DNA of 64,000 bases from NCBI GenBank assembly GCA_028712705.1, contig JAQTPP010000002.1:43180-107179 (forward strand), given 5' to 3'. Below, one piece after another: positions 46,191 through 63,807 of this stretch. A model generated the notes under the pieces. The model did no database searches. It saw only the letters and a program-made list of their open reading frames with translations, and was not told the DNA's origin. The number at the start of each line of letters is the position of its first letter. Position 1 is the first letter of the stretch. Origin of the DNA: Candidatus Daviesbacteria bacterium (GTDB lineage Bacteria > Patescibacteriota > Microgenomatia > Daviesbacterales > UBA10151). Made by a program: the position numbers and the translations under genes.

Positions 46191-46784
46191 ATGTTAGAAA
46201 GTGAATTTGAAAGACTATGGAGATGGGCTCCGGTTCCCGATGAAGTTCGTAAAGAAAAAGGCGCTTGGAATTATGGGTCTCCTGGTAATAATTTTACTGG
46301 AACTGATAATGAGCGAGAATCCGAACTTTCGTTGTCTGATATTCGAAGATTAAATTCTAGGTTTACTGAAGGACCAACGAGAAGATTACGGCCGTATGTA
46401 ATAAAGGCAAACCCACTTTTTAAAGAGCAATCAGGCAAAGAGGAATCAGATGAAACACCCGGACAGTCTAAATACGTACTTAGAGAAGGAAGATGGGCAA
46501 TTACTGTAGCAGGAAGAATAGCTAGACGACCAGATAGTCATGATCATAATTGGGTGGTGAAGCATAAGGACGAAGGAACTCTACCAAGACCAGTAAAACT
46601 GATGCGATCTATGAAGAGAGATGGTTTTATGCCAGAAGATTGGCCAGTAGAAAATGTATCAAGAGATCCTTTAGAAGGTCCGTGGCAAGTAGGAGGAAAA
46701 ATTACTGTATTTAGTTCCCATGCTGAATGGGAGGATCTTGACGCTGGTTTCATTGCAAGATCCCACAAAACTCCAAAGACTTAA
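46191..46784 (+). CDS. Hypothetical protein
   Basis: 197-aa ORF with no recognisable motifs. Its 3' part is overlapped antisense by the recombinase ORF read-through. Confidence 0.35.
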   Translation: MLESEFERLWRWAPVPDEVRKEKGAWNYGSPGNNFTGTDNERESELSLSDIRRLNSRFTEGPTRRLRPYVIKANPLFKEQSGKEESDETPGQSKYVLREGRWAITVAGRIARRPDSHDHNWVVKHKDEGTLPRPVKLMRSMKRDGFMPEDWPVENVSRDPLEGPWQVGGKITVFSSHAEWEDLDAGFIARSHKTPKT

Positions 46785-48435: not shown

Positions 48436-48486
48436 AAAATAACCTTGAACCCTGTCGGGTATAAAAAGAATTTTTGCGATAAATTA

Positions 48487-48640
48487 TTGGCAGTTTGTTC
48501 CATATCTTTTGTGAAAGCGGATTGACTCCGCTTTCACTTAAATGGCCACCTTGGTGATCTCAACCGGTGAAGGTTGTCCAAGATGGCCATTAAAAAACTC
48601 CACCGAATGTTGAGATCGCAAACATATTACAAACTGCCAA
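48487..48640. promoter_or_regulatory. Complex palindromic site upstream of the recombinase gene (candidate recombination site / regulatory region)
   Basis: 12-bp IR TTGGCAGTTTGT/ACAAACTGCCAA. It encloses a 10-bp-stem hairpin (48511-48537) and a ~50-bp imperfect palindrome AATGGCCACCTTGG...CCAAGATGGCCATT centred on AACCGGT (48541-48591). Confidence 0.4.
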
Positions 48641-48839
48641 AAGAAAATACAATATAGCAAAAATTCAATTGCGCATTTAGGCAAAGTTTCCCCACCTTAA
48701 GTGGGGAATTATTGATTTATATTTATATAAAAATAAGCAAAGCTTTTCTTTTTGCTTTGCAAAAAATAAAAAATCGCAAGGGGAATTAAAATTTCAAAAA
48801 AAGGTACTGCAATTAAAAGAATCTTGGGCTTTCTGTTTC

Positions 48840-48920
48840 CTCACCGACAAAATAGTTTGCTGTGGAGCTCTAAACCCATGGGCGGCGCTCTGCGCCGCCC
48901 CGCTAACTCGGGATTTGGTA
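48840..48920. repeat. 81-bp perfect inverted repeat, right copy
   Basis: Reverse complement of 46939-47019. Abuts and overlaps by 3 nt the 184-bp IR copy A. Confidence 0.85.
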
Positions 48921-49101
48921 GCGATCTATGATATCGCTCGGACTTATTTTATCAGGAATTATTAATCGGCGCATCGTATCGTTACGCTTCGGCCGGCTAA
49001 TCGCCGGCCTTGCTAATCACCGACGTATCGGTTCGCTCCGCTCAGGCCGCCTTCGGCGGCCTTCGCTTACCCCGATTCAATCGGGGCTTAAAACTAATCT
49101 T
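48918..49101. repeat. 184-bp perfect inverted repeat, copy A (partner 62667-62850); GC-rich with at least 4 internal hairpins
   Basis: Exact reverse-complement match verified by hand. Internal hairpins include GGCCGGC-TAATC-GCCGGCC, GGCCGCC-TTC-GGCGGCC, CCCGA-TTCAA-TCGGG and GCGAT-CTATGAT-ATCGC. Confidence 0.85.
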
Positions 49102-49215
49102 ATCTTTGGAAATTTTCGCATTTTCTATCCTATCTTTCTGTCTGTTTTATTTTGAGTAGCTTTTGTCTAAAGAGCACTTTTGTTACTCAAACAAAATGTC
49201 TGTTATACTTTATTT

Positions 49216-49980
49216 ATGTCTCAAAATTTTTATGATAAGGTAGCTAAAAAATTTGGTGGTTATGGATATGGTAATGGAAGGAAACCTCAGTATAAAAGCG
49301 AATACCCAGCGGGCGATCCTGAAAGGATTTTTAAAGAAAAGCTATTGGAGTTAAGTTCAAAAGATAAAACGGCACTGGATAGTGGGTGCGCTGACGGCAA
49401 ATTTACTCTTTCTATTGCTCCCTATTTCAAAAAAGTGTACGGGATTGATATTTCAAAGGAAAATTTGAATGTTGCAAATAACCACAGAGCTGATGAGAGA
49501 AGTAAAAATGTTGAATATTCTTTTCAAAACGCAAAACATACCTCATTTGAGGATTCTTTTTTTGATATAGCATATTGCAGGAGAGGACCTACTTTTTACA
49601 AGGAGTATCACAGAATTCTTAAAACCGGTGGATATTATCTTGAAATTGGAATAGGAGAGATGGATACAATAGAGCTAAAAAAGATATTTGGCAGAGGGCA
49701 AGGGTATGGAGAATGGGATAAGTCAAAATTGGATGAAAACTTAAAAGAAATAAAGAATCTTGGTTTTAAGGTTATTTTTGCAGAGAATTTTTATCCCTTT
49801 GAATACTATCCTTCTTCCGCGGAGTTTGATTTATTTCTACATCAGGTACCAATTTTTGAAGATTATGATTCGGAAAAAGACGAGGTATCACTGCAAAAGT
49901 ATGTTAAGAAATTTTCAGCCGATAAAGGTATTATGCTTTCGCGTCACCGGTTGGTAATGGTTGTACAAAAAGTCAGTTAG
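49216..49980 (+). CDS. Class I SAM-dependent methyltransferase (Methyltransf_11/25-like)
   Basis: Motif I 'LDSGCADGKFT'. No DPPY/NPPF motif, so probably not a DNA N6/N4 methyltransferase. Start taken at the internal Met of the 49180 ORF. Confidence 0.65.
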   Translation: MSQNFYDKVAKKFGGYGYGNGRKPQYKSEYPAGDPERIFKEKLLELSSKDKTALDSGCADGKFTLSIAPYFKKVYGIDISKENLNVANNHRADERSKNVEYSFQNAKHTSFEDSFFDIAYCRRGPTFYKEYHRILKTGGYYLEIGIGEMDTIELKKIFGRGQGYGEWDKSKLDENLKEIKNLGFKVIFAENFYPFEYYPSSAEFDLFLHQVPIFEDYDSEKDEVSLQKYVKKFSADKGIMLSRHRLVMVVQKVS

Positions 49981-49994
49981 ACGATTTTCTCGTT

Positions 49995-50750
49995 TTATTT
50001 TTCGTAAATTCTGATTGCTTGCCGATATTTACAAAAGTCACAGTCGCTACCACTATTGGGTAGTTTTTCAGATTTTAAACATTCTATAGCATCGAAAATA
50101 GTTCCTTCAACCCAGCTATCGTCTCCTTCGTATGGAAGAATTTTAATATCAAATTCCAGTTTGGCATCAAAAGCTGCTTTGTCTGTATTGCCATTGCAGT
50201 AAACAAAGTATCCGGTATTTGAAACTTTGAAACAGTTTTTCCTAAAAAGCCACTGGTATATTTCCATCTGCCTTTTATAGCCAATTTGCCACTCGGCATT
50301 GAGGGTAACTTCTTCATCTTTGGCAGTAGCCTTGTAGTCAACTATGATTAGTTCTTTTTTGGGATTAACCCAAAGATCATCAATTCCCCCTGTTACCAAG
50401 ACATTACTGTGATCTATTTTTAAAGTTATTCCACCCCGTAGAGAATCTCTCCACTCATCCAACTTTTCGTGAGCCATAGGGACTGCATCAACTTTGTAAT
50501 GTTTCATCAAAGGATGGGGAGTACCATTTGCACGATGAATATCAAACTCTTTTTTTAACAATTTATCTACAGCAGAATTAAGGGAGAAGGGATACCCAGG
50601 CGGTTGAGCAACTCCTAATTTTCTATCAAGGTAAAAACATCTTGGGCAATTTAAATATAAATCAATTTTTGACCTGCTCAAACGAAATAATTCTTTAGAA
50701 TTCTTATCATATAAATTTCTTTTCCTACTTGGATTGTAATATTTAGACAT
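49995..50750 (-). CDS. Cas4-like/RecB-family PD-(D/E)xK nuclease with 4-Cys cluster
   Basis: N-terminal 'CPRC'; 'GGIDDLWV' (D), 'IIVDYKATAK' (D-x-K), 'QMEIYQ' (QxxxY); C-terminal 'C-x11-C-x2-C'. Start at the Met 4 nt after the upstream gene's stop. Confidence 0.65.
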   Translation of the reverse strand: MSKYYNPSRKRNLYDKNSKELFRLSRSKIDLYLNCPRCFYLDRKLGVAQPPGYPFSLNSAVDKLLKKEFDIHRANGTPHPLMKHYKVDAVPMAHEKLDEWRDSLRGGITLKIDHSNVLVTGGIDDLWVNPKKELIIVDYKATAKDEEVTLNAEWQIGYKRQMEIYQWLFRKNCFKVSNTGYFVYCNGNTDKAAFDAKLEFDIKILPYEGDDSWVEGTIFDAIECLKSEKLPNSGSDCDFCKYRQAIRIYEK

Positions 50751-53583
50751 CTTTGAAGTTGTACTTTTGCTCTCTTTTTTGGAAAGCCTCTCTCCCTCCC
50801 TCAAGAATTTCGCAAACGTGCTGGCGGACACCTTTTCTATAAAGTATAGATTTTTCTTTTGATTCCGATAGTTCAAAAGCATTTTCTAGTGATCCAGATA
50901 CATATTCAAATGTATATTTTCTATTATCTCTACCTTTTTCTTGACCTTCCTGGTTTGCTACTATTATTTCTTCGGCATCAGCTCCAACAACTAGATTAGG
51001 GTTATGTGTTACAAAAATAATCTGTCTTCGCTTTTTCTTTTTCTTGATAAAAGATACCAAATCATCGTATACGGATCGATTATCCAAGTCATCTTCAGGT
51101 TGGTCTAAAAGTATAGGCCATTCTTCATTGCTTAGGTCAATTAAAATTCTTAATAACACAAGACCTTTTTTACCAGGAGACATTTTATCCAATGAATCAT
51201 TTTTATATGAAATTTTGAAATCAAGGTAAAAATAGTCATCCAAAATTTTTGTTACTGCTTCTTTGGTAGATTTATTCTTAACAGTTTTTATTTTTCCATC
51301 TATTACGCTTGTGAAAATAGCAGTTATAAAATCTATATGTTCGTTCGGATTGTATTGATATTCATACTCATCTTTCCACTCAGTACCGTCTATCAATCTT
51401 TTAATATCTACTTTATTTATACAACCATTTATTACTTCATCATTAAATCTTTGCTCATTGAATCCTACTAAAACGTTTAAAGAGATTCCGTCAAATCTCT
51501 TTTCATACTTTTTAAATTCGTCCTTTATTGAATTATAACTACCGAATATTTTTTTATAAACATCAATTAAGAATTCTTTCTCATTTTTATGGCTATTTTT
51601 CTTTGATTCTAGATTCTTTTTTTCAATAGCTATCCTATCTAGTTTACCCTGCTCAATCTTAATTTCTTCATTTTTCTTTTTGAGTTCATCTTGGAGTTTA
51701 ACCTTTGCCATTAGAGGTGTTAGATCTTTTCGGATCTCTTCCAAAAGCTTTTGCTTTTCAGAAACTCTAGTATCTATTAATCTAATTATTTTACCTACAG
51801 ATAATAATAAATTATTACGTACAGTTTCTATCTGATGAAATTCTTTTGTAAATTCATTTTTAATCTCCTCATCTTCTAGATATACTAATTGTTCGTTCTT
51901 TAAATTCTCAAAACTTTTTAATTGTTGATAAATATTTTGACTAAATAAATTTATATGCTTTTTATCTTCCGATAAAAGTGTAACCTTTCTTGTTGCTTCT
52001 TGCTCTTTGTTTAATAATTGTTCGTAATCTTTAATTTGTACAGTAGTTAAGCCAGACTTGATCTTGATTTCGTTAGCTTCTTTCTGCAGTTGCTCTAGAT
52101 ATTTCCTAATACCACTCTCCTCTCCAAGTTGCTTTAAAGTTTGTTCAATTTCTAAAATATCATCCCTGAACTGATATAGATTGTTTATGCTAATAGGAAT
52201 ATTTTTTGAAAGGCTTTTAATTTGCATAAGATCACTTTCGTGTTTTTCTTTCACCTCTTTATCTTGAAGTAGTACATCCATTACGAATCTATTTAAAGTT
52301 TCTCTACTTTTTATATTCCTTTCAGAAAGTTTATTTAAATAATTTTGTGGAATATATAAAATCTTTCTTTCATTTTCTTTAACTTGTGCACCTGTATTTT
52401 TGAGAAAAGTACTTGCTCCATCTGTCCAAACGACTTCGAAATTAAAGTTTGGATTTTCGTCGAATGTATAAGGTAAAACTAATTGTCCATCTGTAAATCT
52501 ACCACCAGCTTCAAGTGGATCAATGGTTTTAGCAATATAATAAAGTAATAAAGATTTACCTGTAGATTTACCGCCAATGATAGCTGTTAAGTTATTGTTA
52601 ATTTCTATTGGGTCTGATTGAAAATTTTCATTTCCGGTACTATCAATAAATCGTATTTTATCTATGAGAAAATATGTTTTTTTTGATTCTGGGCGTTCGT
52701 AACCAAAAGCTACTCTATCCCAAGGCTCAAATAAAATTTGTTTTAATCCTTCAAAAGTTTTATCTGCTTTTATCCAAGTTATATCTTTTTCCGTATTGCC
52801 TTGAGTATTAGTGAACTGTTTCCCTAAAAAATTATCAAGATCGGAGAATGAATGACAGTCTGATGTAGTGACAACAGCTTTAGGCTTTGACTGTATACTT
52901 TTATTTTCATAGCGATCAGTTTGTAAGTAATAATCTTTATTGTTAGCATTTCCGAAGAAAAAATCACAAAAGCTGTCAAATGAGTCAGCTAACTCCTTTT
53001 TAACATTAGAGCTAGGAACAGCCCTTAAGCTCCCCATACCTGAAGCCACCCCTACAATGAGATAAGGACAGTCATTTCCAAAACTATCCTCTAAAGTTTT
53101 TTTTAAATCTTCAATCGAAATACTTACCCGATCATATCCGCCACACCCTGTAATATCTGCATCAACACAATAACATTTTGATTCATCAGGTTGTTTGTTT
53201 TGAAGGGGTAATCTAGAAAGAAAGCTTTTTATTCTTGCAATCTCGCATTGAGGATCAAAAATCAGATGGCATTGTAATTGTTCTGTAGCTTGATTAAGAC
53301 TAATATCTAGTCTCAATTCAATATTTGGAAAGAAAACTTTCCCCTCAAAATCTGAATTACCTTGTATCTTTGAGATAAGTTTTTCATACCCATCTATGGA
53401 AAAGTAATCAGTGATACCAAATACTTCTACATCAGAATTCTTAATTCTTTCCAGAAAAAGATTCCAAACGTCATCAATAATACCGCCTCTTATTTTATAT
53501 TGGTCTTCTCTTTTAGTCTCAGGAGTATGAATCTGTAAATCCCACTTCCTCCATACAGAACCCTTTGGGTATAAATTGTTCAT
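50743..53583 (-). CDS. PHP-domain-fused SMC/Rad50-like ABC ATPase (Ppl/TrlF-like architecture)
   Basis: N-terminus 'KWDLQIHTPETK' His-rich PHP-like. Walker A 'GGKSTGKS'. About 350 aa of coiled-coil-rich insert. C-terminal 'ILLDQPEDDLD' Walker B/D-loop and 'FVTHNPN' typical of OLD/SMC-like ABC ATPases. Confidence 0.7.
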   Translation of the reverse strand: MNNLYPKGSVWRKWDLQIHTPETKREDQYKIRGGIIDDVWNLFLERIKNSDVEVFGITDYFSIDGYEKLISKIQGNSDFEGKVFFPNIELRLDISLNQATEQLQCHLIFDPQCEIARIKSFLSRLPLQNKQPDESKCYCVDADITGCGGYDRVSISIEDLKKTLEDSFGNDCPYLIVGVASGMGSLRAVPSSNVKKELADSFDSFCDFFFGNANNKDYYLQTDRYENKSIQSKPKAVVTTSDCHSFSDLDNFLGKQFTNTQGNTEKDITWIKADKTFEGLKQILFEPWDRVAFGYERPESKKTYFLIDKIRFIDSTGNENFQSDPIEINNNLTAIIGGKSTGKSLLLYYIAKTIDPLEAGGRFTDGQLVLPYTFDENPNFNFEVVWTDGASTFLKNTGAQVKENERKILYIPQNYLNKLSERNIKSRETLNRFVMDVLLQDKEVKEKHESDLMQIKSLSKNIPISINNLYQFRDDILEIEQTLKQLGEESGIRKYLEQLQKEANEIKIKSGLTTVQIKDYEQLLNKEQEATRKVTLLSEDKKHINLFSQNIYQQLKSFENLKNEQLVYLEDEEIKNEFTKEFHQIETVRNNLLLSVGKIIRLIDTRVSEKQKLLEEIRKDLTPLMAKVKLQDELKKKNEEIKIEQGKLDRIAIEKKNLESKKNSHKNEKEFLIDVYKKIFGSYNSIKDEFKKYEKRFDGISLNVLVGFNEQRFNDEVINGCINKVDIKRLIDGTEWKDEYEYQYNPNEHIDFITAIFTSVIDGKIKTVKNKSTKEAVTKILDDYFYLDFKISYKNDSLDKMSPGKKGLVLLRILIDLSNEEWPILLDQPEDDLDNRSVYDDLVSFIKKKKKRRQIIFVTHNPNLVVGADAEEIIVANQEGQEKGRDNRKYTFEYVSGSLENAFELSESKEKSILYRKGVRQHVCEILEGGREAFQKREQKYNFKDV

Positions 53584-53584
53584 A

Positions 53585-53668
53585 TTATTCTTTATTATTT
53601 TCTACAATCGCAATTTCTTCCTGCGTTAGGCCGTAGAGTTTATAGACAAAATCGTTAAATTCAAACAT
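53585..53668 (-). pseudogene. 27-codon ORF (MFEFNDFVYKLYGLTQEEIAIVENNKE) resembling a DNA methyltransferase C-terminal tail; possible gene remnant or coupled micro-ORF
   Basis: 'LYGLTxEEI' is a recurring C-terminal tail of N6-adenine methyltransferases/type IIG enzymes (recollection). Its stop sits 1 nt before the ATPase start codon. Confidence 0.25.
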
Positions 53669-53831
53669 ATTAAATAATCACTTGCGCATAAATTTTTCTT
53701 CAAATATGTCATCAAAAACGGTTTCATTACTTTTACGGTAAATGGCATACCAATAATTTTTATCCATTTATCATGAGTTAGTAAGTTTCCGTATAATAGA
53801 CATTAAAATTTTGCTTATTAGTTTCCATATA

Positions 53832-56800
53832 TTATGAATGATACTGTCTCGTTCCTCTACAGTAAGGGAAACGGGAACAACCATAAAATCTACCATACCT
53901 TCCGGTTCTCAATATCATACCCGAACCGCATTTTGGACAATTTTTATCGTTAGAAATTAGAGCATCATTAACATCTTCGGCAGGCTTTTCAACTAATGTA
54001 TAACCCTTACAATGCATACAAAATCGTCCATATCCGGTTGTCAAATCAGGATCCCTAAAGTCTTTATATTCTCTAACTTCCTTACATTTTGGACACTCCT
54101 TCATTGAACCATTTTGTAAATTTTCTACCGTTTCGTGTATATGGCTTATGACATTATTTTTTCCCACCCCATTTTTAACTAAACTAATTATTCTTTCGTT
54201 AAGAGTTGCAATAGGATTGTTGCCAATGTTGAATTTATTAATTCTTAAAAATCTGTAACCGTAACTCTCTAATACTTTTTCTCTATAAATATCTGATTCG
54301 GAATAATAATCTTGGTAGTTGTATTCATTTATTTCATCGGTATCCTTAAAGTGCTCTTTAAAACCGTCATATTCCATGACGATTTTGTGTTCTTTATGTG
54401 TTTCGTCCTTATATACAAGTAAGAAATCAACCTTATATTTTGGATGATTGTAGGTTCTATCGAGTTGTTTCAAATACTTTCCAAGCTCAAACTGTGGAAT
54501 AAACTCAATGCTATCCTTGTGTTTTGTCCAAAACTCCGTTTGATAAAACCAATTCATGACTTCAGGCTCCATCTTAGACTTCTTATCAGCTTCGGTAACA
54601 CTGTGCTCCTTCTTAGATTCGTTAAGAACAAAATAATAGTGTCTTAAGGCTTCACCTATTGAACCGGTATAATTTTCAATAGGTTTACTTAACACAAAAT
54701 GCATACATTCTTTGGCACGGCTTAAACCAACGTTCAATCTTTGAGCTTTTATTCTTCCTTCTTCTTCAACATCAACATCATTTAAATCTTTAATAAACAC
54801 ACCCCAAAGATGATCATCTTCTTCCATCGCAACCATGGAATAAAATACGAGATCTCTTTCTTCGCCTTGGCAGGTGTCAAAAGTCATTATTTTTAATTTA
54901 AAGGTATCGTAAAAGTAATCTTTTTCCGGTAATTGACTAATTTTTTCAACGAGTAATTTCTGTTGATTGGTGTGGGGCGTTATAATACCAACGCTTTGAT
55001 TAGACCCAGACTCTTTGAGTTTTTTCAACTCCGAAATAATATATTTGACTTCCAATTCATTAGAATTTTGCAACAATTCCGTTTTCCCATCATGTTTGAT
55101 AAACGAAAATTTCAGTACTTCATCAATCGACTTCCCTCGAATTTTCATTACCTGTAGGCTGTCCTGATAAAAGTATTTATTTGAATAGGAAATAATCTCT
55201 TTGTAACCTCTAAAATATTTTAAAAGTTGTATATCGTAGTTACTAATAAAATCAAAAAACTCAAGAATTGAGGTTTTAATATTAAACTTTTTGAGTTTCT
55301 CTAATTTCACACCTTCATTTGAAATATTTTTAACAAAGCTGTCTTCAAGTTGACTTAAATATTTCCTATTTTCTTCTGTGCGAGCTTGCGCAGTCTTAAC
55401 GTTACTAAATTGTTTTCTATCTCCCAAAACTAACACCTTTTTAGCTCTCAGAAGTGCAGGAAAGGCCTGAGCTATGCTTACCTGTGAAGCCTCATCTATA
55501 ATTACTAAATCAAATATTTCAGGTTCAAGAGGAATATACTCAGCATAATCTCTAATTCCAGCCAAAATGCAGGGAAAAGCCTCTTTAAGCTTTAGAAATT
55601 CATTTTGTGGAAACTTCATTTTGCTTTGAATTATTTTTTTCAAAGCGGTTGCGGTAGCTTTGTAATTAGTCCAAAAATCAATCAGCCTATTGTCCATGAC
55701 ATGAGTCATTTGTACAGTAAGCAAGCTTTCAATGTCTTTCTTTTGACTATCGTAGTTGAGATCAGGAATGTCTTGAAAATCCTTTTCAATCTTTTGGTTC
55801 AAACTCAAATATCTGATTAATTTATCGAAATCCAAATCAGATATTTTTGTGAAACTATTATCAGTAAGAGTTTTAAATGACGAAAGATTAACTTTTAGTT
55901 TTTTAGCCGTAAGTGGATACTTATCTATATTTGAGCCAAGATATTTTATATCATCATTTAAAGCTATTAAGTCATTTAAAGATGATAGAGTGCTTTCATT
56001 TTTTATGGCTTGATGAAAAAAGTGTAAGTAGTCGAGTTTACTAATAAATTTGTCATCAAGCTTGCCAAATATTTCATCCGCATAATTATAGATGTTCGTT
56101 GCTTCGTCAAGTTTCTTTAGGTTTTGTTGTGGTTCGATTGAAGATGAATATTTAAAATTTTTTCTAAATTCAGTATTTAGCCGCCCTATCTGATCTTTTT
56201 TGAATAGATAGCCGAATAGCCAATTTTTCTCCTCTTTATATTTTTGTATGGACGAGTTTAGGATTTTTAACCTAGAAGAATCGAAGCTTTCGAACTCTAG
56301 AATTGAATTTACTTTATCTCCATATACTTCACGCAGTTTAGCGACAGATGAAGAAAGAGAGCTTAAAAACTGTAAATATTTTTGAAAATCAGATGTATCT
56401 TTGAAGTCATCAAGAGAAAAATCCAATAACTCAAATATTTTTAGTGCCTTTTCATTTTCATCAGTATTAATTACTAAATTAGCTTTAAGTGTTAAAAATA
56501 TCTTCCGGAATTCTTCAAGATCTATCGCAGACTCCTGCTGTTTAACCACTTCTTCTAAATCAATGGGGAAACCATTGTTTGTATGGTAGCTTTCAAGATC
56601 AAAGTATTCGTGAATCTCTTTTATATCGATATCCTTATAAGTCAATATTTCTGCTTCTATGTCCTCCTTTAATGACTTCTGAGATTTATCAATATTCTGT
56701 TCTAGATCCTTATAGTTTTTCTTTACTGCAAGAAAATTATTTGTAATAGCTTTAATTGATATTGGACTTAGTATCTTTGCATAAGCATTACCTATTTTCC

Positions 56801-58430
56801 CCAATCTTAAAACAGGATTTTGAAAATTATCGTCTGTCCTAACTTTGTTCATCGTTTCCGTTATCTTATCCTCTACAACATCAAGAGCCTCTTTCTTATC
56901 AGACAGAACTAAAACAGATTGGTTTTTAAGTATTGCGTTGAAAACAACTGCGGTTATTGTATGGCTTTTACCTGTTCCAGGAGGACCTTGCACAATAATA
57001 TATTTACAATCATCTTGCTTTATAGCTGATAGTATTTGTAGTTGTTCTTCGTTTAATGGAATCGGGCTTTGAAATACAAGTTTATCCTGTACTTCTTGAT
57101 CATTCCAATCTTCTTGAATTTCTATATTGAAACTTTTTGGGTCTTTCTGAATAAAGTCATCAATTAACTTGTTAAAAGCACCAGCTAAAATATTATCCTC
57201 GGAAGAAAGAAGCTTTAAAATTTCTTCGTAATCGTTTACCAACGCTTCATCAGATTTATCGAATAAGGTTATATAGCATGAATTAGACACCCTAACAAGA
57301 AAACTCTTCGCAACCTGCGGGTCCGTTTTATCTATATCAATATTGTTGTCTAATTCAAAAAAGTTAGTGATCTCATTCAGGATTTCGCTTGTTAATTCCC
57401 TGAAATCATCTTGATGTTGTGCTAGATAGATAATTCTTTCAGCAATGGTTTTTAGATTTCCCTTTTTATCTTTTTCTTGATTATATTGCTGTGAAATGTA
57501 TTCAAGTGCTTTCTTGTTTATGTAGACTTGAGAATCAAATTCTATATTCAATAGATCATTTTGTTTTTCTACAGTAAACGGAATATAGAAAATTGGATAC
57601 TTTGCCTTTTCAAAAGTGATATCGCAAAAATATAGATAAAATTCCTGTTTGTCTAAAATGGTACGGTTCCGCTCCATCTCATATACTTCTGCAAATAAAT
57701 CTCCGACACGGAAACTTTCAAAAAACGACAAAATATTAGTTTTGGCATTATCAATGTCAAAAACATCCTTTAATTGCTTAGGAATGTCTACCTTTTCCTT
57801 TGCCAACAGGAGCTTAATAACTTCTGAAATTTTATTTTCAAGCAAGGAGGTGAGAACAGAGGTAAGTTCCTCTTCCATTAAATAGATACTGTCCTCATCT
57901 CCTAAATTTAAGTTCTCGAGTGGTTTTTCTAAATAATTAATAAATGGTAGTACTAATTTTGATTGAATGACTTTTGAAGTTGCTTCGAGGGCTGTACTTA
58001 ACGCTTGGTCATATTCTTTTTTATACAGAGTAGACGATTTCTCAATCTCTCCACCAATTTGTTCAAGCATCTGAGAAATTTGCTTATTCGTTATTTTTGT
58101 AAGAGATAGCTCGATAAGATCAAGAAGATTTTGGGGTATATTTGTACGGTAGACACCTTTTTGGATCGCATTTAAAGCACTTTTGTCAAAAGAATGATTA
58201 ATTGCTTTCCAAACAAGATTAGAAAAAGCCGGATATTTATTAAGGTTTAAACCAATTAGTAGATTATTACCACTTCGTAATTGAACACTCCGTTTTGGGT
58301 TTCTTCTTTTATGGAAATCTGTTTCCAGAAAATCCATAAAGTATTTAGCAACTTCGCGAATAAAAGTAAGGCTCTTGGAGAGACTAAAAACTTTTTCGTC
58401 TTTATCAGTCTCATTATCAATTAATGCCAT
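53832..58430 (-). CDS. Giant SF1 (Upf1/DNA2-like) helicase fused to a DUF559/Vsr-like PD-(D/E)xK endonuclease and two topoisomerase-type zinc ribbons (Hhe-like architecture)
   Basis: Walker A 'GPPGTGKSHT'; motif II 'IIDEASQ'; 'VLVLGDRKQ'; C-terminal 'FLLVYKDETHKEHKIVMEYDG...REKVLESYGYRFLRI' REase-like; 'CPKCGSGMILRTGRYGRFYGCSRFPYCRGT' zf-C4_Topoisom. N-terminal ~470 aa are DUF4011-like. Confidence 0.8.
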   Translation of the reverse strand: MALIDNETDKDEKVFSLSKSLTFIREVAKYFMDFLETDFHKRRNPKRSVQLRSGNNLLIGLNLNKYPAFSNLVWKAINHSFDKSALNAIQKGVYRTNIPQNLLDLIELSLTKITNKQISQMLEQIGGEIEKSSTLYKKEYDQALSTALEATSKVIQSKLVLPFINYLEKPLENLNLGDEDSIYLMEEELTSVLTSLLENKISEVIKLLLAKEKVDIPKQLKDVFDIDNAKTNILSFFESFRVGDLFAEVYEMERNRTILDKQEFYLYFCDITFEKAKYPIFYIPFTVEKQNDLLNIEFDSQVYINKKALEYISQQYNQEKDKKGNLKTIAERIIYLAQHQDDFRELTSEILNEITNFFELDNNIDIDKTDPQVAKSFLVRVSNSCYITLFDKSDEALVNDYEEILKLLSSEDNILAGAFNKLIDDFIQKDPKSFNIEIQEDWNDQEVQDKLVFQSPIPLNEEQLQILSAIKQDDCKYIIVQGPPGTGKSHTITAVVFNAILKNQSVLVLSDKKEALDVVEDKITETMNKVRTDDNFQNPVLRLGKIGNAYAKILSPISIKAITNNFLAVKKNYKDLEQNIDKSQKSLKEDIEAEILTYKDIDIKEIHEYFDLESYHTNNGFPIDLEEVVKQQESAIDLEEFRKIFLTLKANLVINTDENEKALKIFELLDFSLDDFKDTSDFQKYLQFLSSLSSSVAKLREVYGDKVNSILEFESFDSSRLKILNSSIQKYKEEKNWLFGYLFKKDQIGRLNTEFRKNFKYSSSIEPQQNLKKLDEATNIYNYADEIFGKLDDKFISKLDYLHFFHQAIKNESTLSSLNDLIALNDDIKYLGSNIDKYPLTAKKLKVNLSSFKTLTDNSFTKISDLDFDKLIRYLSLNQKIEKDFQDIPDLNYDSQKKDIESLLTVQMTHVMDNRLIDFWTNYKATATALKKIIQSKMKFPQNEFLKLKEAFPCILAGIRDYAEYIPLEPEIFDLVIIDEASQVSIAQAFPALLRAKKVLVLGDRKQFSNVKTAQARTEENRKYLSQLEDSFVKNISNEGVKLEKLKKFNIKTSILEFFDFISNYDIQLLKYFRGYKEIISYSNKYFYQDSLQVMKIRGKSIDEVLKFSFIKHDGKTELLQNSNELEVKYIISELKKLKESGSNQSVGIITPHTNQQKLLVEKISQLPEKDYFYDTFKLKIMTFDTCQGEERDLVFYSMVAMEEDDHLWGVFIKDLNDVDVEEEGRIKAQRLNVGLSRAKECMHFVLSKPIENYTGSIGEALRHYYFVLNESKKEHSVTEADKKSKMEPEVMNWFYQTEFWTKHKDSIEFIPQFELGKYLKQLDRTYNHPKYKVDFLLVYKDETHKEHKIVMEYDGFKEHFKDTDEINEYNYQDYYSESDIYREKVLESYGYRFLRINKFNIGNNPIATLNERIISLVKNGVGKNNVISHIHETVENLQNGSMKECPKCKEVREYKDFRDPDLTTGYGRFCMHCKGYTLVEKPAEDVNDALISNDKNCPKCGSGMILRTGRYGRFYGCSRFPYCRGTRQYHS

Positions 58431-58491
58431 AGTTTAGATCAATTCTAGCAAAATTCTTTGATTTAAGATAGGAAGAAATTAAACTTGAGAT

Positions 58492-59004
58492 TTACAGACC
58501 CCAGATGCCTCTTTTATTTTTCTTGGCCTCATCTTGAGCTTTAAGTAATAACTCCCGGTAAATAAATGGTTTCTTTTTTTGGTAAACTACAACTTGTGCC
58601 ATGCCAAGTCTGGCAAGTTTCATAGAGACATTTTTGCCATCAACAATTACATAGGCAAGTATCCTGCCAAATTTGTCTCCTTTGTAATTGTCATATTCCA
58701 GTTTTATTTCTTTCCCTTCAACCAATTTTCTGTTTGCTTCAGTGGCCTCTTTTTCAAAAGGCTCATTAGTTTCAGGGGAAGTTATACCAACATACCTGAC
58801 AATTGCCCCGCTGTGCAAAACAATGGTATCTCCGTCAACAATCCGTTCAACTTTTGCTTCCTTTGGAAAATAACTGATATTCTGGGTCTGGTATTTACCT
58901 GTATTTTCAATTAGGTCTTTAATCTTTTTCTCATAAGGAGTATTTTTAAGATGAGGCAATATATCTTCCAGTAAATTTTCTGAAACGGTAATTAGTTTAG
59001 CCAT
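58492..59004 (-). CDS. Staphylococcal nuclease (SNase/thermonuclease)-like protein
   Basis: 'RIVDGDTIVL...VRYVGITSPE' and 'GKEIKLEYD...DKFGRILAYV' SNase OB-fold catalytic motifs. The ORF-track N-terminal extension overlapping the upstream gene was rejected. Confidence 0.65.
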   Translation of the reverse strand: MAKLITVSENLLEDILPHLKNTPYEKKIKDLIENTGKYQTQNISYFPKEAKVERIVDGDTIVLHSGAIVRYVGITSPETNEPFEKEATEANRKLVEGKEIKLEYDNYKGDKFGRILAYVIVDGKNVSMKLARLGMAQVVVYQKKKPFIYRELLLKAQDEAKKNKRGIWGL

Positions 59005-59044
59005 ATTTATGGATCCCGTATCAAGTACGGGATGACAAGGTAGA

Positions 59045-60265
59045 TTAGTTATGCTCAATAAAAGCTTTGTAGCCAACAAGCTTTTTGTTATCCCCTGAAC
59101 TGGAATAGATATTTTTAACTCCAAAGGTGAGATATAACTCATCTTTGGCATAAGTGATGGTAGTGCCATTGGGGTCTGATGAATTGAAGGTTTGCTTGAA
59201 ACCGGAATTTGTAAGCTCTCTGGTATAGTAATCAATAAAGTCTTGAGGAATAGTTTCCAGTTGTGATGATTCAAGGTAGACACCTTCCTGCTCAATTCTT
59301 CTTTTACCTGAAGTAAAAAGTAAGGTTTTGCTTTGGGTTAGTTCCCAAGTAAGGCCGGAGAATAAAGCAGGCAAGATAGAAGGATTAGAGGGGGTAGAAG
59401 GAGAAGAGGGATTAGGGGCAACAGGTAGCGTGGGAGTGGGGGTTGGTTTAGTTTCAAAAGAAACAACTTCGGAGACTTCTATTAAATTAGGGGTTGGGGT
59501 CATGTTGCCTTTAACTTCTACCTTCATGTTTTCAAAATTAGCTAAATTAACATTTTGTGATTTAGGTATTAGAGTCCACATGGTTTTATTTTTATCATTT
59601 GCCTGCAGGTAATATCCTTTGGTAGACTTTTGTATTGTCCCCTGGGCAGTAATTGACCGGTGCAGGATTGGAGAAAAATTGGGGAATAGTTTACCTACAG
59701 CATAGTTCAGGCCTGATTTAAATCCTACTCCAAAACCTCCAATTCCCACCATTATTACAATCAATGCCAGGACAGGAATGCGCAGAGTAATCATTTGTCT
59801 TTTGAGCAGTTTAGCTAAAAATTTCTTGAGATATGTTACAGGATTGGTCAGAAAGAAGCCAAAAAGAGGAGGGTCTTCTTTTTCAGAGGGTTTGGTATTT
59901 TGGTTAATTTCTATGATAGGAGGCAGAATTGAGGAAGGATTAGAGGGAACAGAAGGATTATCCGCCTTCGCCGAGGCTTCGGTGGACGAGGTAGGATGTT
60001 CAGATGTAATGAAGTGACCATGTTCGTCTCTTGGTTTGTTTTGGGCTGCTTCAGAATAATGTTCGTGTTTTAAAGCATCTGGTCCTTCGGCTTCACTCAG
60101 GATCTTCGAGGTATTCGGAGTGTTCAGGGGAGGAGTTTGTGGCGTAGGCGGGATAGGATTAGGTTGGGGTTGTGTCTGGTAAGGACTGTTTGGGTCTACA
60201 GGATTAGTATGGGGGTTAAAGTTAGAGCCAAAAGGTTGAGGCGGATCTTTGGGCAGATTATCCAT
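59045..60265 (-). CDS. Proline-rich membrane protein (low-complexity P/T/N-rich segments, one TM), unknown function
   Basis: Composition and one hydrophobic helix 'ITLRIPVLALIVIMVGIGGFGVGF'. Confidence 0.45.
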   Translation of the reverse strand: MDNLPKDPPQPFGSNFNPHTNPVDPNSPYQTQPQPNPIPPTPQTPPLNTPNTSKILSEAEGPDALKHEHYSEAAQNKPRDEHGHFITSEHPTSSTEASAKADNPSVPSNPSSILPPIIEINQNTKPSEKEDPPLFGFFLTNPVTYLKKFLAKLLKRQMITLRIPVLALIVIMVGIGGFGVGFKSGLNYAVGKLFPNFSPILHRSITAQGTIQKSTKGYYLQANDKNKTMWTLIPKSQNVNLANFENMKVEVKGNMTPTPNLIEVSEVVSFETKPTPTPTLPVAPNPSSPSTPSNPSILPALFSGLTWELTQSKTLLFTSGKRRIEQEGVYLESSQLETIPQDFIDYYTRELTNSGFKQTFNSSDPNGTTITYAKDELYLTFGVKNIYSSSGDNKKLVGYKAFIEHN

Positions 60266-60311
60266 ATCTTCAGTATACCCTCAAGATAATTTCAGGTGCA
60301 AGCTAAAGATT

Positions 60312-60884
60312 CTATTTAACTGCAATAGATATTAATTTTTCGTGATACTCCGGCTTTTTTGAAGAATCAACTCCATATAAAACTACTTCAATAATATCAA
60401 ATACCCAATTGACTTTTTTTAGCCTGGTACTTAATTCCAAGAGAGAGGCTTTAAATGCTTCTTGAGCTTTTGGATCTCCTACCCAAGCCACAGTAACATG
60501 AGGATGAAATGGTAAGTTATTATCAGCAGCGCAGTAAATAGATAGACTTTTTGAAATTAACTTATTAAATTCCTGTAATTGCGGCGGATATTGAACATCT
60601 GAAAATAGTATTCTTGGCTTATCTTCTCCAAAATACCCAAAACCGCTAACCTTTAATTTAGTTCCTTTCAGTATTTCTAAATACTTTTTGACATCTTCTG
60701 CTATTCTTGACAAAGCGGATTGAGATTGTTTATCTAAATAACAAACGGTGATATGAGGAGTTTTAGGGTGGGTTGTTTTAAATAAAGGACTGATTTGAGA
60801 AATATCGGTCTGTAAGTCTTCAAAATCTTGTTGATACTTCTGAGGCAGGGGGATTCCAATAAAATATGAACTATAATCTTTCAT
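60312..60884 (-). CDS. 2H phosphoesterase, LigT/ThpR-like (2'-5' RNA ligase family)
   Basis: Two HxT/S motifs: 'HITVCYL' and 'HPHVTVAW'. Confidence 0.75.
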   Translation of the reverse strand: MKDYSSYFIGIPLPQKYQQDFEDLQTDISQISPLFKTTHPKTPHITVCYLDKQSQSALSRIAEDVKKYLEILKGTKLKVSGFGYFGEDKPRILFSDVQYPPQLQEFNKLISKSLSIYCAADNNLPFHPHVTVAWVGDPKAQEAFKASLLELSTRLKKVNWVFDIIEVVLYGVDSSKKPEYHEKLISIAVK

Positions 60885-60941
60885 GAAAGCAGTATATCAA
60901 ATTTTGACTTTTTGAGCTTATAGGTTTACAATCCGATTGTT

Positions 60942-61886
60942 ATGTCAGCTGAAGCACCGAAAAATACTGGTATAACTGCTCCTAATACACAGCAAGAACC
61001 ACAAGGCTGTCTTCCCGGATTTCTAAGAAGATTATTTGCAACTCCACAAGAAGTACAACAAATACCAAAAATTATACAGCCACCATCAGGCTTAGAAGGC
61101 TTTGCTGATCAGCTACAGCAAGGAATAGATGGATATTTTGCATCAGTAAGGCAGCAAGATTTAGAGAGAAGAAATGCTGAAGCTGCAAGGATGGCAAATA
61201 AGGCATTAGAAAAGATAAAGACTGAACAACTACAAAGAGACCGGCTGGAGCAAGAACAATCAAGAATTAGGGCAGCAGTCACAGAGGCATCTAAGACCTT
61301 ACAGGATTTCCAGATAGCCGAAAGATTGAGATATATACAAGATAAAATATGGGGAGGAAAAGGGAATATAGCAGCTGCAGAACCTGCATTTAATATTGAT
61401 GGAAGGTATAACCGCCTAGGCGGACTTAGGTTAGAATATGAATGCCCATATTACTACAGAACGGTAACAGAAGAATGGTCAGATGCAAAAAATTATGCTT
61501 CCCGAAAATATGAACGAAGGTGGAAGTATGCTTCAGCTACATTTGGAACATGTCTGAGTGTAGATGTATTAGCCTGTCGACAGGACTCCCAAGTGGAGGC
61601 AAGAAAGCTCCTTGAAGTATCAGCAATATATGATTATACATTTAGAGTAGGTGTAGGTCGTTTCCCTTTTGGGGGTGACACATTCTTAGGGAAAGTTACT
61701 ATCCCGATAGACCAACCAGATAGCAAAACCCTTTTAGGCGGGGCTTTAACTCAAGAAACAGTTCATAGAGTTGCTATTGGATGGATACCGTCGAAACTAG
61801 ATGAACAAGCACTGGAAGAACGGTCACGTCTCCCTCATTGGGAAAAATGGATTTATGTACCCCCAGTGTATTCAGGTGGTGACTAA
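60942..61886 (+). CDS. Hypothetical protein (Gln/Glu-rich coiled-coil N-terminal half)
   Basis: 314-aa ORF with composition distinct from its neighbours; no motif recognised. Confidence 0.35.
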   Translation: MSAEAPKNTGITAPNTQQEPQGCLPGFLRRLFATPQEVQQIPKIIQPPSGLEGFADQLQQGIDGYFASVRQQDLERRNAEAARMANKALEKIKTEQLQRDRLEQEQSRIRAAVTEASKTLQDFQIAERLRYIQDKIWGGKGNIAAAEPAFNIDGRYNRLGGLRLEYECPYYYRTVTEEWSDAKNYASRKYERRWKYASATFGTCLSVDVLACRQDSQVEARKLLEVSAIYDYTFRVGVGRFPFGGDTFLGKVTIPIDQPDSKTLLGGALTQETVHRVAIGWIPSKLDEQALEERSRLPHWEKWIYVPPVYSGGD

Positions 61887-62666
61887 TATTTATTATTTTA
61901 ATTTGCGGCTTCCGCCGCCCCCGCAAAGTTAAGGTATAAAGACCCAAAAAGAGGGCAGCACCATTAGAAGGAATGTTAGGAATGTAGATAAAAATATAAT
62001 TGGGTGCTGCCCGATATACGCGAACCCGCCAAATTTTACTTCGGGATTTTAAAAGGGCGGGTGAGCCATCGGAATCAGTTGTGAGTGTCCCGTCTCGAGA
62101 CGGGACCGAACGGCATGGAAACAGAACAGGGTAAAAATTGCGGCGGGGGCGAAAGCGGAATACCCCCGCAACGGCAGGCGGTACTTCATAACCAATTTAA
62201 GGTAGTCAAGGAGCAGACCCTAAAGGGTCTCCGATCTATAACAGAATAAATAAAGGAATCAATATAAAATAAAATTTCGCGGCTCCGCAGACGGGTTAGA
62301 TACTGTATGAGCAAAATTGAAACGTACCATATAGGCGAGTCGCCCCCTAGGGCGACCTCTCGCCCAAAAGCGGGGGTGCCGCCACAACTATTTGGGTGGG
62401 TGGGTTGCTAGGAGTATGTACCAGCTCCACAACTTACCACAACACCACAATTTGTGGGCTGCTGAAGCAGGTAACCACAATTGTGGTCCACAATAAATTA
62501 TTGTGGTGATTAGATTGTTACAACAGGCTAATTGTGGTACTTATAAAAATAATGCAACTTTGTAAATGGTTGTGGGAGTGGGACTAGTTGCCCGCGGATG
62601 GGTGGGGTGGGCAAGGGCAACATTTTCTGTTTCCCCCTTTCCCCTCCTGCGAAAATTTCCAAAAAA
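61887..62666. other. GC-rich ORF-free structured region: stacked hairpins, CCACAA/TTGTGG palindromic iterons, G-tract (G4-like) motifs; candidate ncRNA and/or origin/partition/operator array
   Basis: No ORF of 60 aa or longer in any frame across ~640 bp. Perfect 20-bp palindrome GTCCCGTCTCGAGACGGGAC (62088-62107). GCGGGGG-[GC-GAAA-GC...]-CCCCCGC. Three CCACAA-N(0-5)-TTGTGG palindromes at 62475-62510 plus half-sites. GGGTGGGTGGG (62396-62406) and GGGTGGGGTGGGCAAGGGCAA (62600-62620). Confidence 0.5.
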
Positions 62667-62850
62667 AAGATTAGTTTTAAGCCCCGATTGAATCGGGGTA
62701 AGCGAAGGCCGCCGAAGGCGGCCTGAGCGGAGCGAACCGATACGTCGGTGATTAGCAAGGCCGGCGATTAGCCGGCCGAAGCGTAACGATACGATGCGCC
62801 GATTAATAATTCCTGATAAAATAAGTCCGAGCGATATCATAGATCGCTAC
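62667..62850. repeat. 184-bp perfect inverted repeat, copy B
   Basis: Exact reverse complement of 48918-49101. Confidence 0.85.
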
Positions 62851-62866
62851 ACTTCGGCTACGCTCA

Positions 62867-63190
62867 GTGCAGGCCTATATGGAACGATCAAAAGAATGGT
62901 TTGTATATATGCTTCTTTGCGATCAGAAAACTTTCTATATTGGTATTACCACTGAGTTAGTTAACAGATTTTCTCAACATAAAAACAAATTATCTAAAGC
63001 AACAGTAGAGTTTTCTGATCTAAAACTAGTTTATTGTGAAAAGTATCTATCGGAACATGAAGCTGCTCTTAGGGAGAAACAGCTTAAGGGATGGAGCCAT
63101 GCAAAGAAGCAAAAGTTAGTAGACGGGATTCTTGGTAGGAATGTATGTACTGAGTATGCAGAAGTTCTGCTAAAACGAGAGAACTTGTGA
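62867..63190 (+). CDS. Small GIY-YIG nuclease superfamily protein (COG2827-like)
   Basis: 'FYIGIT', 'R..QH', conserved Glu and Asn. Lies between IR184-B and the 20-bp tRNA-Glu 3' repeat. Confidence 0.65.
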   Translation: MQAYMERSKEWFVYMLLCDQKTFYIGITTELVNRFSQHKNKLSKATVEFSDLKLVYCEKYLSEHEAALREKQLKGWSHAKKQKLVDGILGRNVCTEYAEVLLKRENL

Positions 63191-63222
63191 GTTTACCCTG
63201 AACGAGCGAAGCGAGCTGAAGG

Positions 63223-63242
63223 GACTCCCGTACGCGGTACCA
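63223..63242. repeat. 20-bp direct repeat of the tRNA-Glu 3' end (candidate attR)
   Basis: GACTCCCGTACGCGGTACCA is identical to 46924-46943. Confidence 0.7.
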
Positions 63243-63306
63243 TAATAAGAGTTTAGTTTGTTACAATAATCTAAACAAAGAATAATGGGTTTACATTGTT
63301 AAAACA

Positions 63307-63807
63307 TTATCTTGATTCAATTTCAGGCACCTTCCTATCGAAAGGCCAAAATTCCCCGTCGCCAAATCCTTTTCTATCCACCTCTGTGTAATCACTGCTA
63401 TGTCTAACATCAAGATAGTTCGAAGCAAGGGTTTGCATTATGACATCGGGGTTTAATTGTTTATCGCGCAGAACTATCGGACTAGTAGGACATCGAGTTA
63501 CTTCTGCGTACCTATACCCAAAAGAAAAACCATATTCCCCACGATCGACTATTCTTTTGGGATCCCCTTGAAGTTGCCAATATCCTAGCTGGTTATCCAT
63601 TATAGCTTTGTACTCAAATTTGAATTTTGGAGCACCGCGGATTATTAGCAATTGTCTTTCAACACTCCCGTCAATGTTAACAGATTGGAATTTATACCCT
63701 GTAGTAACATCCCAAGCTCCTCCTGGACTTACCCAACTACCAGAGCCGTATCCTTCTCTGACTGCGGATGTAGAATGAACGCTTGTGATATGACCTATAT
63801 TCCACAC
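63307..63807 (-). CDS. Hypothetical protein
   Basis: 166-aa ORF, Gly/aromatic-rich. An upstream ORF on the same strand continues to the window edge. Confidence 0.3.
   Translation of the reverse strand: MWNIGHITSVHSTSAVREGYGSGSWVSPGGAWDVTTGYKFQSVNIDGSVERQLLIIRGAPKFKFEYKAIMDNQLGYWQLQGDPKRIVDRGEYGFSFGYRYAEVTRCPTSPIVLRDKQLNPDVIMQTLASNYLDVRHSSDYTEVDRKGFGDGEFWPFDRKVPEIESR

Follow-up and report, generated by a model that had tools for sequence, protein, structure and literature searches.

The question raised by this locus is whether a GC-rich stretch with no obvious gene makes a large RNA, acts as DNA, or does both. It lies at positions 61887-62666 of a 64,000-nucleotide (nt) stretch of DNA from a Candidatus Daviesbacteria genome (assembly GCA_028712705.1, contig JAQTPP010000002.1, positions 43,180 to 107,179), which as a whole is called the window here. 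A first-pass annotation, made from the letters alone, had proposed a large structured noncoding RNA (ncRNA), a replication origin, partition or operator array, or both. The reading that we favour, with a probability of roughly 0.65, is that the plus strand from 61904 to about 62660 would be the gene for an undescribed large structured ncRNA of ~770 nt. The element would probably represent a new class of ~770-nt structured RNA in bacteria of the candidate phyla radiation (CPR), and no description of it was found in the literature on large RNAs of Daviesbacteria, Microgenomates or CPR.

The region was described as GC-rich, which proved to be right: its GC fraction is 0.468, and 0.497 between 61904 and 62410, versus 0.372 for the whole window and 0.338 for 50000-61886. 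Only 0.6% of 780-nt windows are equally GC-rich. It was also said to be free of open reading frames (ORFs). This holds for 61887-62540, where none of at least 60 amino acids (aa) occurs, but not for the last ~125 nt, which two minus-strand ORFs on a repeated GC-rich tail overlap:

62528-62758, minus strand: ORF of 76 aa
62541-62840, minus strand: ORF of 99 aa

Both were treated as spurious, since the second copy of the tail (homology end 49120) has no listed counterpart of at least 90 aa. No ORF is conserved among the homologues, and the lengths of insertions and deletions among these are not multiples of three.

Copies of the element were located through contigs encoding homologues of two proteins, the neighbouring 314-aa protein (p314) and a proline-rich membrane protein (p406), and by exact-pattern scans. 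The ~770-nt element is present in at least six further Daviesbacteria or Patescibacteria contigs (designated by L numbers), always as one copy per contig, and the following forms were found:

L005, L013, L014, L017, L018: full-length copies
L008, L012, L023: partial copies at contig ends
L006, L011: remnants of the first ~75 nt
L006 1846-1908; L011 4605-4545, minus strand; L001 9050-9085: truncated copies with the first 30-75 nt only
L019 4222-5000, minus strand: variant in which a homologous palindrome region follows a different GC-rich 5' domain (GGGCCGCCGCGGCGGCCC and others)

The copies in L015 and L016 equal that in L013, and L022 differs from L017 at 14 of 1147 positions. L011 and L013 derive from Rifle aquifer data sets. 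In the L019 variant, which may be a second subfamily, every CCACAA is replaced by CCAUAA or CCAUUA, while the C-rich strand and GCGAAAAUUUCC near the 3' end and the tail are kept. The truncations in L006 and L011 share a near-identical breakpoint directly after GAGGGCAGCACCAT, the 5' strand of hairpin P2 (see below), which suggests either that breaks recur at this site or that the 5' segment has a use of its own.

Identity of the element across loci is 67-85% at the DNA level (L018, at 67%, is the most divergent), while at the same loci the proteins share 35-40% (p314) and 65-73% (p406). Where p314 is 35-40% and p406 65% identical, the element is 83-85% identical, and its first 62 nt match completely in L023, in which p406 is 68% identical. 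The element is thus better conserved than the neighbouring genes. Its distribution among p406-bearing relatives is patchy (it is absent from L020 and L021). No BLAST match to the region was obtained in phage or plasmid records, and pattern scans of viral contigs for the 5' motif, the GNRA hairpin, the domain-2 motif and the palindrome array gave no match. As far as sampled, the element is confined to Candidatus Daviesbacteria and close Patescibacteria relatives.

Several copies are covered by a public gene call or a long ORF, namely those in L005 (2256-2564, 102 aa), L022 (3371-3883, 170 aa, antisense) and L013 (3003-3332, 109 aa). Used as a protein query, the 102-aa call matched only itself among 5.8 billion proteins. 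A small protein gene was rejected on the basis of this result and of the lack of ORFs of at least 60 aa in 61887-62540. Such calls are probably annotation artefacts, and annotators should be cautioned that the 102-aa L005 and the antisense 170-aa L022 genes are probably spurious.

The structure was analysed with RNAalifold and pair counts on alignments of domain 1 (A3, seven sequences) and domain 2 (A4, six sequences). As controls, the 3' partners were slid by 1-3 columns and 500 shuffles, which ignore phylogeny, were made. The features of these two domains are:

61904-62181, plus strand: domain 1, a multi-helix junction with three hairpins, closed by a long GC-rich helix
61907-61925 with 62142-62164, plus strand: closing helix P1, UUCCGC.C.GCCCCCGC / GCGGGGGC.GAAA.GCGGAA, from RNAalifold
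about 61935-61947: invariant joiner GGUAUAAAGACCC
61953-62012, plus strand: hairpin P2, GGGCAGCACC/GGUGCUGCCC, 10 bp with a variable 40-nt loop
62020-62066, plus strand: hairpin P3, GC..CCCGCC/GGCGGG..GC, with CUUCGG in the apical loop region of the window's copy
62078-62114, plus strand: hairpin P4, which holds a perfect 20-bp palindrome
about 62117-62141: invariant joiner GGAAACAGAAYAGGGUAWAAAUUGC
62182-62410, plus strand: domain 2, from alignment A4
62190-62293: variable peripheral hairpin region
62295-62307: near-invariant GUUAGAKACUGUA
62339-62356: hairpin
62358-62366 with 62397-62405: helix
62370-62382: small hairpin
62394-62404, plus strand: first G-tract GGGUGGGUGGG, read as the 3' strand in a 9-bp helix whose 5' strand is (U)CUCGCCCA (62358-62366), from RNAalifold

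In domain 1, 97.4% of the cells of the 57 pairs are paired, versus 35-46% after sliding, and 11 pairs have changed on both sides, compared to 4.0 +/- 1.5 in the shuffles, none of which (0/500) reached this number. Five of the eight pairs of P3 have changed on both sides (CCCGCC/GGCGGG to GGCCG/CGGCC to GACCGC/GCGGUC, with 98% of cells paired), as have five of the 14 pairs of P4 (for example GUCCCGUC/GACGGGAC to CUUCCCUC/GAGGGAAG in L014), a hairpin that is swapped for a shorter one in L018. P2 is nearly invariant, with one pair changed on both sides. In P1 every pair is invariant, hence covariation is silent either way. Domain 2 behaves similarly: 91% of the cells of its 37 pairs are paired, versus 40-50% after sliding, and 11 pairs have changed on both sides, which again none of the 500 shuffles reached. 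Five covarying pairs each fall in its helices 3 and 4 (the swapped peripheral hairpin and the hairpin at 62339-62356), so that with P3 and P4 a total of four helices have five such pairs each. While peripheral hairpins are inserted, deleted or swapped among the homologues, the core is retained, with the near-invariant joiners of domain 1 and also GUUAGAGACUGUA and AAAGCGGGGGUGCC. The proposal of a large structured ncRNA is therefore supported by conservation in other genomes and by compensatory changes in several helices.

Several single observations of the first-pass annotation could be placed in this structure. The perfect 20-bp palindrome, GTCCCGTCTCGAGACGGGAC, lies at 62087-62106 within P4, and the GC stem with a GAAA loop, GCGGGGG-CGAAAGCGGAAUA-CCCCCGC, at 62143-62169. 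Both clusters of G-tracts exist (62394-62404 and 62600-62617), but the suggestion of G-quadruplexes was not supported. The first tract is invariant and has three G runs, and its predicted partner is CUCGCCCA, with G.U pairs included. An upstream string, GGCGAG, could pair with it instead, but L014 and L018 have lost this string while retaining CUCGCCCA and the G-tract. In the alignment-based fold, it is better read as a strand of the CUCGCCCA/UGGGUGGGU helix than as a quadruplex. The second tract belongs to a variable insert missing from L005 and L013. A quadruplex as a conserved feature was rejected, there being no set of at least four conserved runs of at least three G. Folded singly, the region is more stable than its shuffles on both strands (z of -6.0 for plus and -4.4 for minus); by themselves, such scores prove little about RNA structure.

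The strand could be assigned from pairs that are not symmetrical. The basal pairs of P4 are U.G in 4-6 sequences and C-G in the others, and in the CUCGCCCA/UGGGUGGGU helix one pair is U.G in 6/6 sequences and another is G.U in 5/6, with G-C in L018. Since on the minus strand these would become A.C mismatches, the plus strand is favoured. Also, the GAAA and UUCG loops read properly on the plus strand only. On both grounds, the RNA would lie on the plus strand, which we state with moderate confidence.

The array downstream of domain 2 and the 3' part were aligned (A5), and RNAalifold was applied to the array in five main-family sequences. Their features are:

62427-62545, plus strand: domain 3, the CCACAA/TTGTGG array, ~120 nt, from hexamer enrichment, A5 and RNAalifold
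62436-62441 with 62533-62538: outer helix, from RNAalifold
62445-62457: full palindrome 1, 1-nt spacer, paired with palindrome 2 over 12 bp in RNAalifold
62475-62486: full palindrome 2, no spacer
62488-62506: full palindrome 3, 7-nt spacer, a hairpin in RNAalifold
62509-62532: second hairpin, from RNAalifold
62546-62660, plus strand: 3' part, an A/U-rich linker and a variable G-rich/C-rich hairpin including 62600-62617, from A5
62630-62648, plus strand: conserved C-rich strand
62649-62660, plus strand: conserved GCGAAAAUUUCC

The C-rich strand and GCGAAAAUUUC are conserved in L005, L013, L014, L017 and L019; pairing within the 3' part is predicted from the single-sequence fold only. We thus envisage an RNA of three domains, in which domain 1 (~280 nt) would be followed by domain 2 (~230 nt), made of two or three covarying hairpins and a G.U-containing helix using GGGUGGGUGGG, then by an optional domain 3 (~120 nt), a G/C hairpin and a C-rich 3' strand. 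It would be transcribed from the plus strand, possibly by read-through from a same-strand gene that ends 8-55 nt upstream. Because the genes upstream and downstream vary from genome to genome, a role in trans seems more plausible than one in cis, and our best guess is a trans-acting, stably folded RNA akin to the 'ornate' large RNAs, which might serve as a scaffold or form an RNA-protein or RNA-only assembly.

A number of observations weigh against this reading. The covariation comes from just 6-7 distinct, closely related sequences, and the shuffle control is not corrected for relatedness. P1, the longest helix, and most of domain 3 never vary and hence have no covariation support, while the local hairpin at 62143-62169 is possible and mutually exclusive with P1. 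RNAalifold energies are nearly equal on the two strands (-88.8 vs -85.0; -43.3 vs -41.5). The identical repeated hexamers resemble protein-binding sites as much as RNA helices. A scan for consensus sequences detected neither a promoter in the 200 nt upstream nor an intrinsic terminator downstream, and in L017, L022 and L023 the 5' end is 34-58 nt from the start codon of p406, which is too tight for two promoters.

The alternative that survives best concerns domain 3. The clustering of the hexamers was borne out, since 11 of the 44 CCACAA/TTGTGG hexamers in the window fall within 62382-62575 (194 bp), where 0.10 would be expected (Poisson P ~2e-19). Of the three palindromes reported with spacers of 0-5 nt, all are present, but the third has a spacer of 7 nt. 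The locus could then be composite, with an RNA made of domains 1-2 only (61904-62410) and an array at 62427-62545 of double-stranded operator, partition (centromere-like) or iteron sites, bound by a dimeric or ribbon-helix-helix-type protein. Such an array might regulate a promoter located in the neighbouring A/T-rich box (ATAAAATAT) or tag the element for segregation or recombination. The 11 identical hexamers in both orientations within 194 bp would suit this, as would the A/T-rich stretch directly after them and the two perfect 12-bp palindromes with their fixed spacing (29 nt from start to start in each of the five distinct homologues where both occur, 30 nt in the window). Domain 3 is otherwise invariant, including the AATT of the would-be loops, which an RNA hairpin does not need. 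All sites have changed in concert in L019 (CCACAA to CCATAA/CCATTA), and the array is modular: it is joined to a different 5' domain in L019, and L014 lacks it while retaining domains 1-2 and the 3' part, so that it is optional in the family. However, in the contexts examined no conserved gene for a DNA-binding protein, an initiator (Rep, DnaA) or a partition protein (ParA/ParB) is linked to the array, and outside it the 12-bp palindrome was found neither in the rest of the window nor elsewhere in the fetched loci. Besides, all eight half-sites of the main family can pair in one nested RNA junction (RNAalifold, five sequences), the hairpin extension covaries in L013 (TAA/TTA to CC/GG), and L019 retains hairpins of other sequence (CCAUAAU-GGACC-AUUAUGG; UAAUUAG/CUAAUUA). 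We consider the composite locus unlikely, although worth keeping in mind, and we lean towards an RNA role of domain 3.

As for an origin, repeats and a short A/T-rich box are present, with no initiator gene in the contexts examined and no switch of GC skew, which is positive throughout the window. The hexamer is also what we take, by our own comparison with TTATCCACA, to be a poor DnaA box. A chromosomal origin was rejected for the lack of a skew switch, the poor DnaA boxes and the absence of the array from one homologue (L014).

A more elaborate version of the RNA reading, which strikes us as rather doubtful, is that of a new class of giant 'ornate' RNA, peculiar to ultra-small CPR bacteria, that either assembles with itself or is catalytic. 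In the first case, the two mutually complementary 12-nt palindromes, together with other CCACAA/UUGUGG segments, would provide intermolecular contacts, and the product would be an RNA-only or RNA-protein particle. In the second, the RNA would process itself and leave 2',3'-cyclic phosphate ends to be handled by a LigT-type enzyme encoded alongside. A LigT-type gene is found beside the element in four contexts examined (the window, L001-L003, L005 and L008).

Could the element act in cis? It might follow the upstream same-strand gene as a long structured 3' untranslated region or a platform for processing, precede the downstream gene as its leader, or, read on the minus strand, supply p406 with a 5' leader and promoter region. 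Six contexts (the window, L005, L008, L013, L014 and L018) have an ORF on the same strand whose end is 8-55 nt ahead of the element; in L017, L022 and L023 the element abuts the start of the divergent p406 gene, and in L011 its first ~75 nt are kept as a remnant beside p406. Nevertheless, the upstream ORFs are of five unrelated kinds (p314, a 212-aa ORF, a 100-aa ORF, a DUF2188 protein and a 1181-aa surface protein), and what follows the tail differs as well (GIY-YIG, recombinase, Exo_endo_phos, GlnA or small membrane proteins). Read on the minus strand, covarying helices would have A.C mismatches in place of their U.G pairs. The LigT gene and an oppositely oriented gene separate p406 from the element in both the window and L005, and ~770 nt much exceeds known leaders. 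The variable flanks disfavour cis-regulation, which we regard as very unlikely, and agree with an RNA gene that stands on its own in a recombination hot spot.

The downstream side of that hot spot is formed by the tail:

62648-62850, plus strand: tail, GC-rich hairpins, an extended -10-like TGATAAAAT (62814-62822), a hairpin AGCGAU-AUCAUAG-AUCGCU and the end GCUAC

The tail is duplicated in inverted orientation at 48918-49120 (203 nt, 99% identity), near a recombinase gene. An inverted repeat of 184 nt had been described as abutting the region; the repeat exists, but it measures 203 nt and overlaps the last 19 nt of the region. Tail sequence lies downstream of the element in L013, L014, L017/L022 and L019, and may be outside the RNA proper. 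L017 and L022, which are otherwise nearly identical, diverge exactly after GCUAC, and this divergence marks the end of the tail as a recombination or integration junction. L017 and copy A of the window's tail continue into a sequence X of 84 nt, which is also found after tRNA-Glu and before the recombinase gene. The RNA would be a resident neighbour of the integration site and not its cargo, as judged from these junctions. To place it inside an island, as had been done, was misleading, because relatives without recombinase or defence cargo still carry the RNA and its tail.

The least probable alternative, in our view only a faint prospect, is that the conserved thing is DNA, namely folded single-stranded DNA, att or accessory sites of the recombinase, or a transfer or single-strand origin, kept alike by horizontal spread: it could draw on the adjoining junction (a GCTAC|CA end joined to different sequences in L017 and L022), on the inverted repeat of the tail beside the recombinase gene, on the patchy distribution and on the shared breakpoint of the L006 and L011 truncations, but most copies have no recombinase nearby (tblastn), those in L018 and L019 lie among housekeeping genes, none was seen in viral contigs, phage or plasmid records or more than once per contig, no relaxase or rolling-circle Rep gene is linked, and the multi-domain build, the GNRA/UNCG loops and the many G.U pairs are typical of RNA.

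In the window, a 16-kb stretch lies between two direct repeats of the tRNA-Glu 3' end (46924-46954 and 63223-63253) and holds a large serine recombinase, defence-like cargo, a staphylococcal-type nuclease, p406, LigT, p314, the RNA and a GIY-YIG gene. A chain of junctions can be followed through it. The tRNA-Glu 3' end is joined to X at 46940, the tail to X at 48923 (minus strand), directly upstream of the serine recombinase, and the tail to a different sequence and GIY-YIG at 62850, with a 20-nt tRNA 3' fragment at 63223-63242. The chain spans 46867-49120 and 62648-63253 of the window, 3400-3461 of L017, about 2760-2860 of L022 (minus strand) and 7062-7503 of L011. The tail followed by X in L017 and by an unrelated gene in L022 corresponds to an occupied and an empty site, and an inversion of 49121-62647 between the tail copies would align RNA, tail, X and recombinase. 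The tail is filled with repeated GC-rich hairpin units (AGCGAAGG-CCGCC-GAAG-GCGGCC-UGAGCG), which also lie on both sides of the small GIY-YIG gene (62867-63190). In the window they are at 62690-62800 and 63190-63225, and they recur in the tails of L013, L014 and L017; in appearance they are a repetitive extragenic palindrome (REP)-like or miniature repeat family. A guide RNA for the serine recombinase was rejected, as complementarity or identity to att (GCGGUAC at ~62178) is specific to the window's copy and unconserved.

The 561-aa recombinase ORF (46750-48435, minus strand) runs antisense through a copy of X and the entire tRNA-Glu gene. None of its Pfam domains extends past residue ~341, and from residue ~472 onwards the coding sequence is that of X and the tRNA; its native C-terminus has probably been replaced. 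L011 has a recombinase fragment only (residues 429-506), beside a tRNA called Leu(caa) by ARAGORN. The cargo at 49180-58430 (GC 0.31-0.32) has the look of a defence island, with an S-adenosylmethionine (SAM) methyltransferase, a PD-(D/E)XK nuclease, a TrlF-family AAA ATPase (NCBIfam NF045780, 547 bits) and a 1532-aa superfamily 1 (SF1) helicase with a Top1-type zinc ribbon and weak similarity to ProA/Hhe anti-phage proteins. A divergent pair encoding a LigT-type RNA 2',3'-cyclic phosphodiesterase and a protein of 314-347 aa (window 60312-61886, with LigT at 60312-60884; L005 605-2248; L001 7387-9044) is found repeatedly next to the RNA or what remains of it; between loci, LigT shows 75-88% identity and the partner only 35-40%. 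p314, which is on record from a Candidatus Daviesbacteria metagenome-assembled genome, gave no matches in Pfam, PHROG or NCBIfam. Its AlphaFold model (mean confidence score, pLDDT, of 77) has a 70-residue helix and very long beta-hairpins, and a Foldseek search against the PDB returned nothing below E=0.1; these results give no hint of RNA binding.

To our knowledge, only a handful of bacterial ncRNA classes exceed 500 nt (OLE, GOLLD, ROOL and some relatives of raiA and HEARO), and their functions are largely open. If our reading is right, a further class would offer a fresh test case for what such RNAs do, confined to reduced CPR genomes and better conserved there than the surrounding proteins, and it would be a ready target for cryo-electron microscopy (cryo-EM) and for metatranscriptome mining.

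Membership of GOLLD, ROOL, HEARO or another Rfam family, which had been suggested, was not supported. A cmscan of the window (Rfam 15, gathering score) gave only five tRNAs, and a permissive search (E<=10; 61500-63400 of the window, L018 3650-4650 and L014 1-1050) only unrelated matches of 10-22 bits that differed between homologues. Since no Rfam 15 family, 6S RNA, SRP RNA and group I/II introns included, matches even at this threshold, the element is not GOLLD, ROOL, HEARO, OLE, raiA, RNase P, tmRNA or an intron. It shares with RNase P RNA a junction of several helices that a long terminal helix closes, and AAAGACCC and ACAGAAC.GGGUA of domain 1 recall its conserved regions CR-I and CR-V (AAAGUCCGG, ACAGAACCCGGCUUA), a likeness which we take to be superficial as the pairing of the RNase P helix P4 fails. 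RNase P RNA was rejected because these strings form just 4 bp (ACCC/GGGU) and no P4 helix. RNase P models gave no match at E<=10 on the window's copy or L018 and, on L014, 10-bit noise from an archaeal model with a gathering score of 84; as a further difference, syntenic sites of related genomes do not carry the element.

The raiA motif RNA and the HEARO or IscB-IsrB omega RNA are likewise structured bacterial RNAs of a few hundred nt found by comparative genomics, and HEARO also rides on mobile elements; the present element differs in being about three times longer, in having no adjacent IscB, IsrB, TnpB or HNH gene and in the lack of an Rfam match. Iteron, operator and centromere arrays, such as heptads bound by ribbon-helix-helix proteins, ACAA-N-TTGT operators of the phage 434 type and the res sites of serine resolvases, resemble domain 3 in their short identical motifs in both orientations, palindromes with varied spacers and an adjacent A/T-rich stretch. 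In contrast to these, domain 3 has no cognate protein gene conserved with it, all its sites can pair as RNA, and the array sits within a covarying structured element and is conserved along with it, although it is optional in the family.

The large RNAs GOLLD and ROOL are located near tRNA-type integration sites and mobile DNA, a setting which the element shares. From ROOL, GOLLD and OLE it differs in the lack of a covariance-model match, the Patescibacteria host and the absence from viral contigs, but it has in common with them the size class of 580-800 nt, many covarying helices, conserved joiners and the lack of a linked protein that would explain its function. ROOL, GOLLD and OLE have been found by cryo-EM to form homo-oligomers, and some of them build large RNA-only assemblies (PMC12286853). 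The self-complementary segments predicted in the element could mediate homo-oligomerisation in the same manner.

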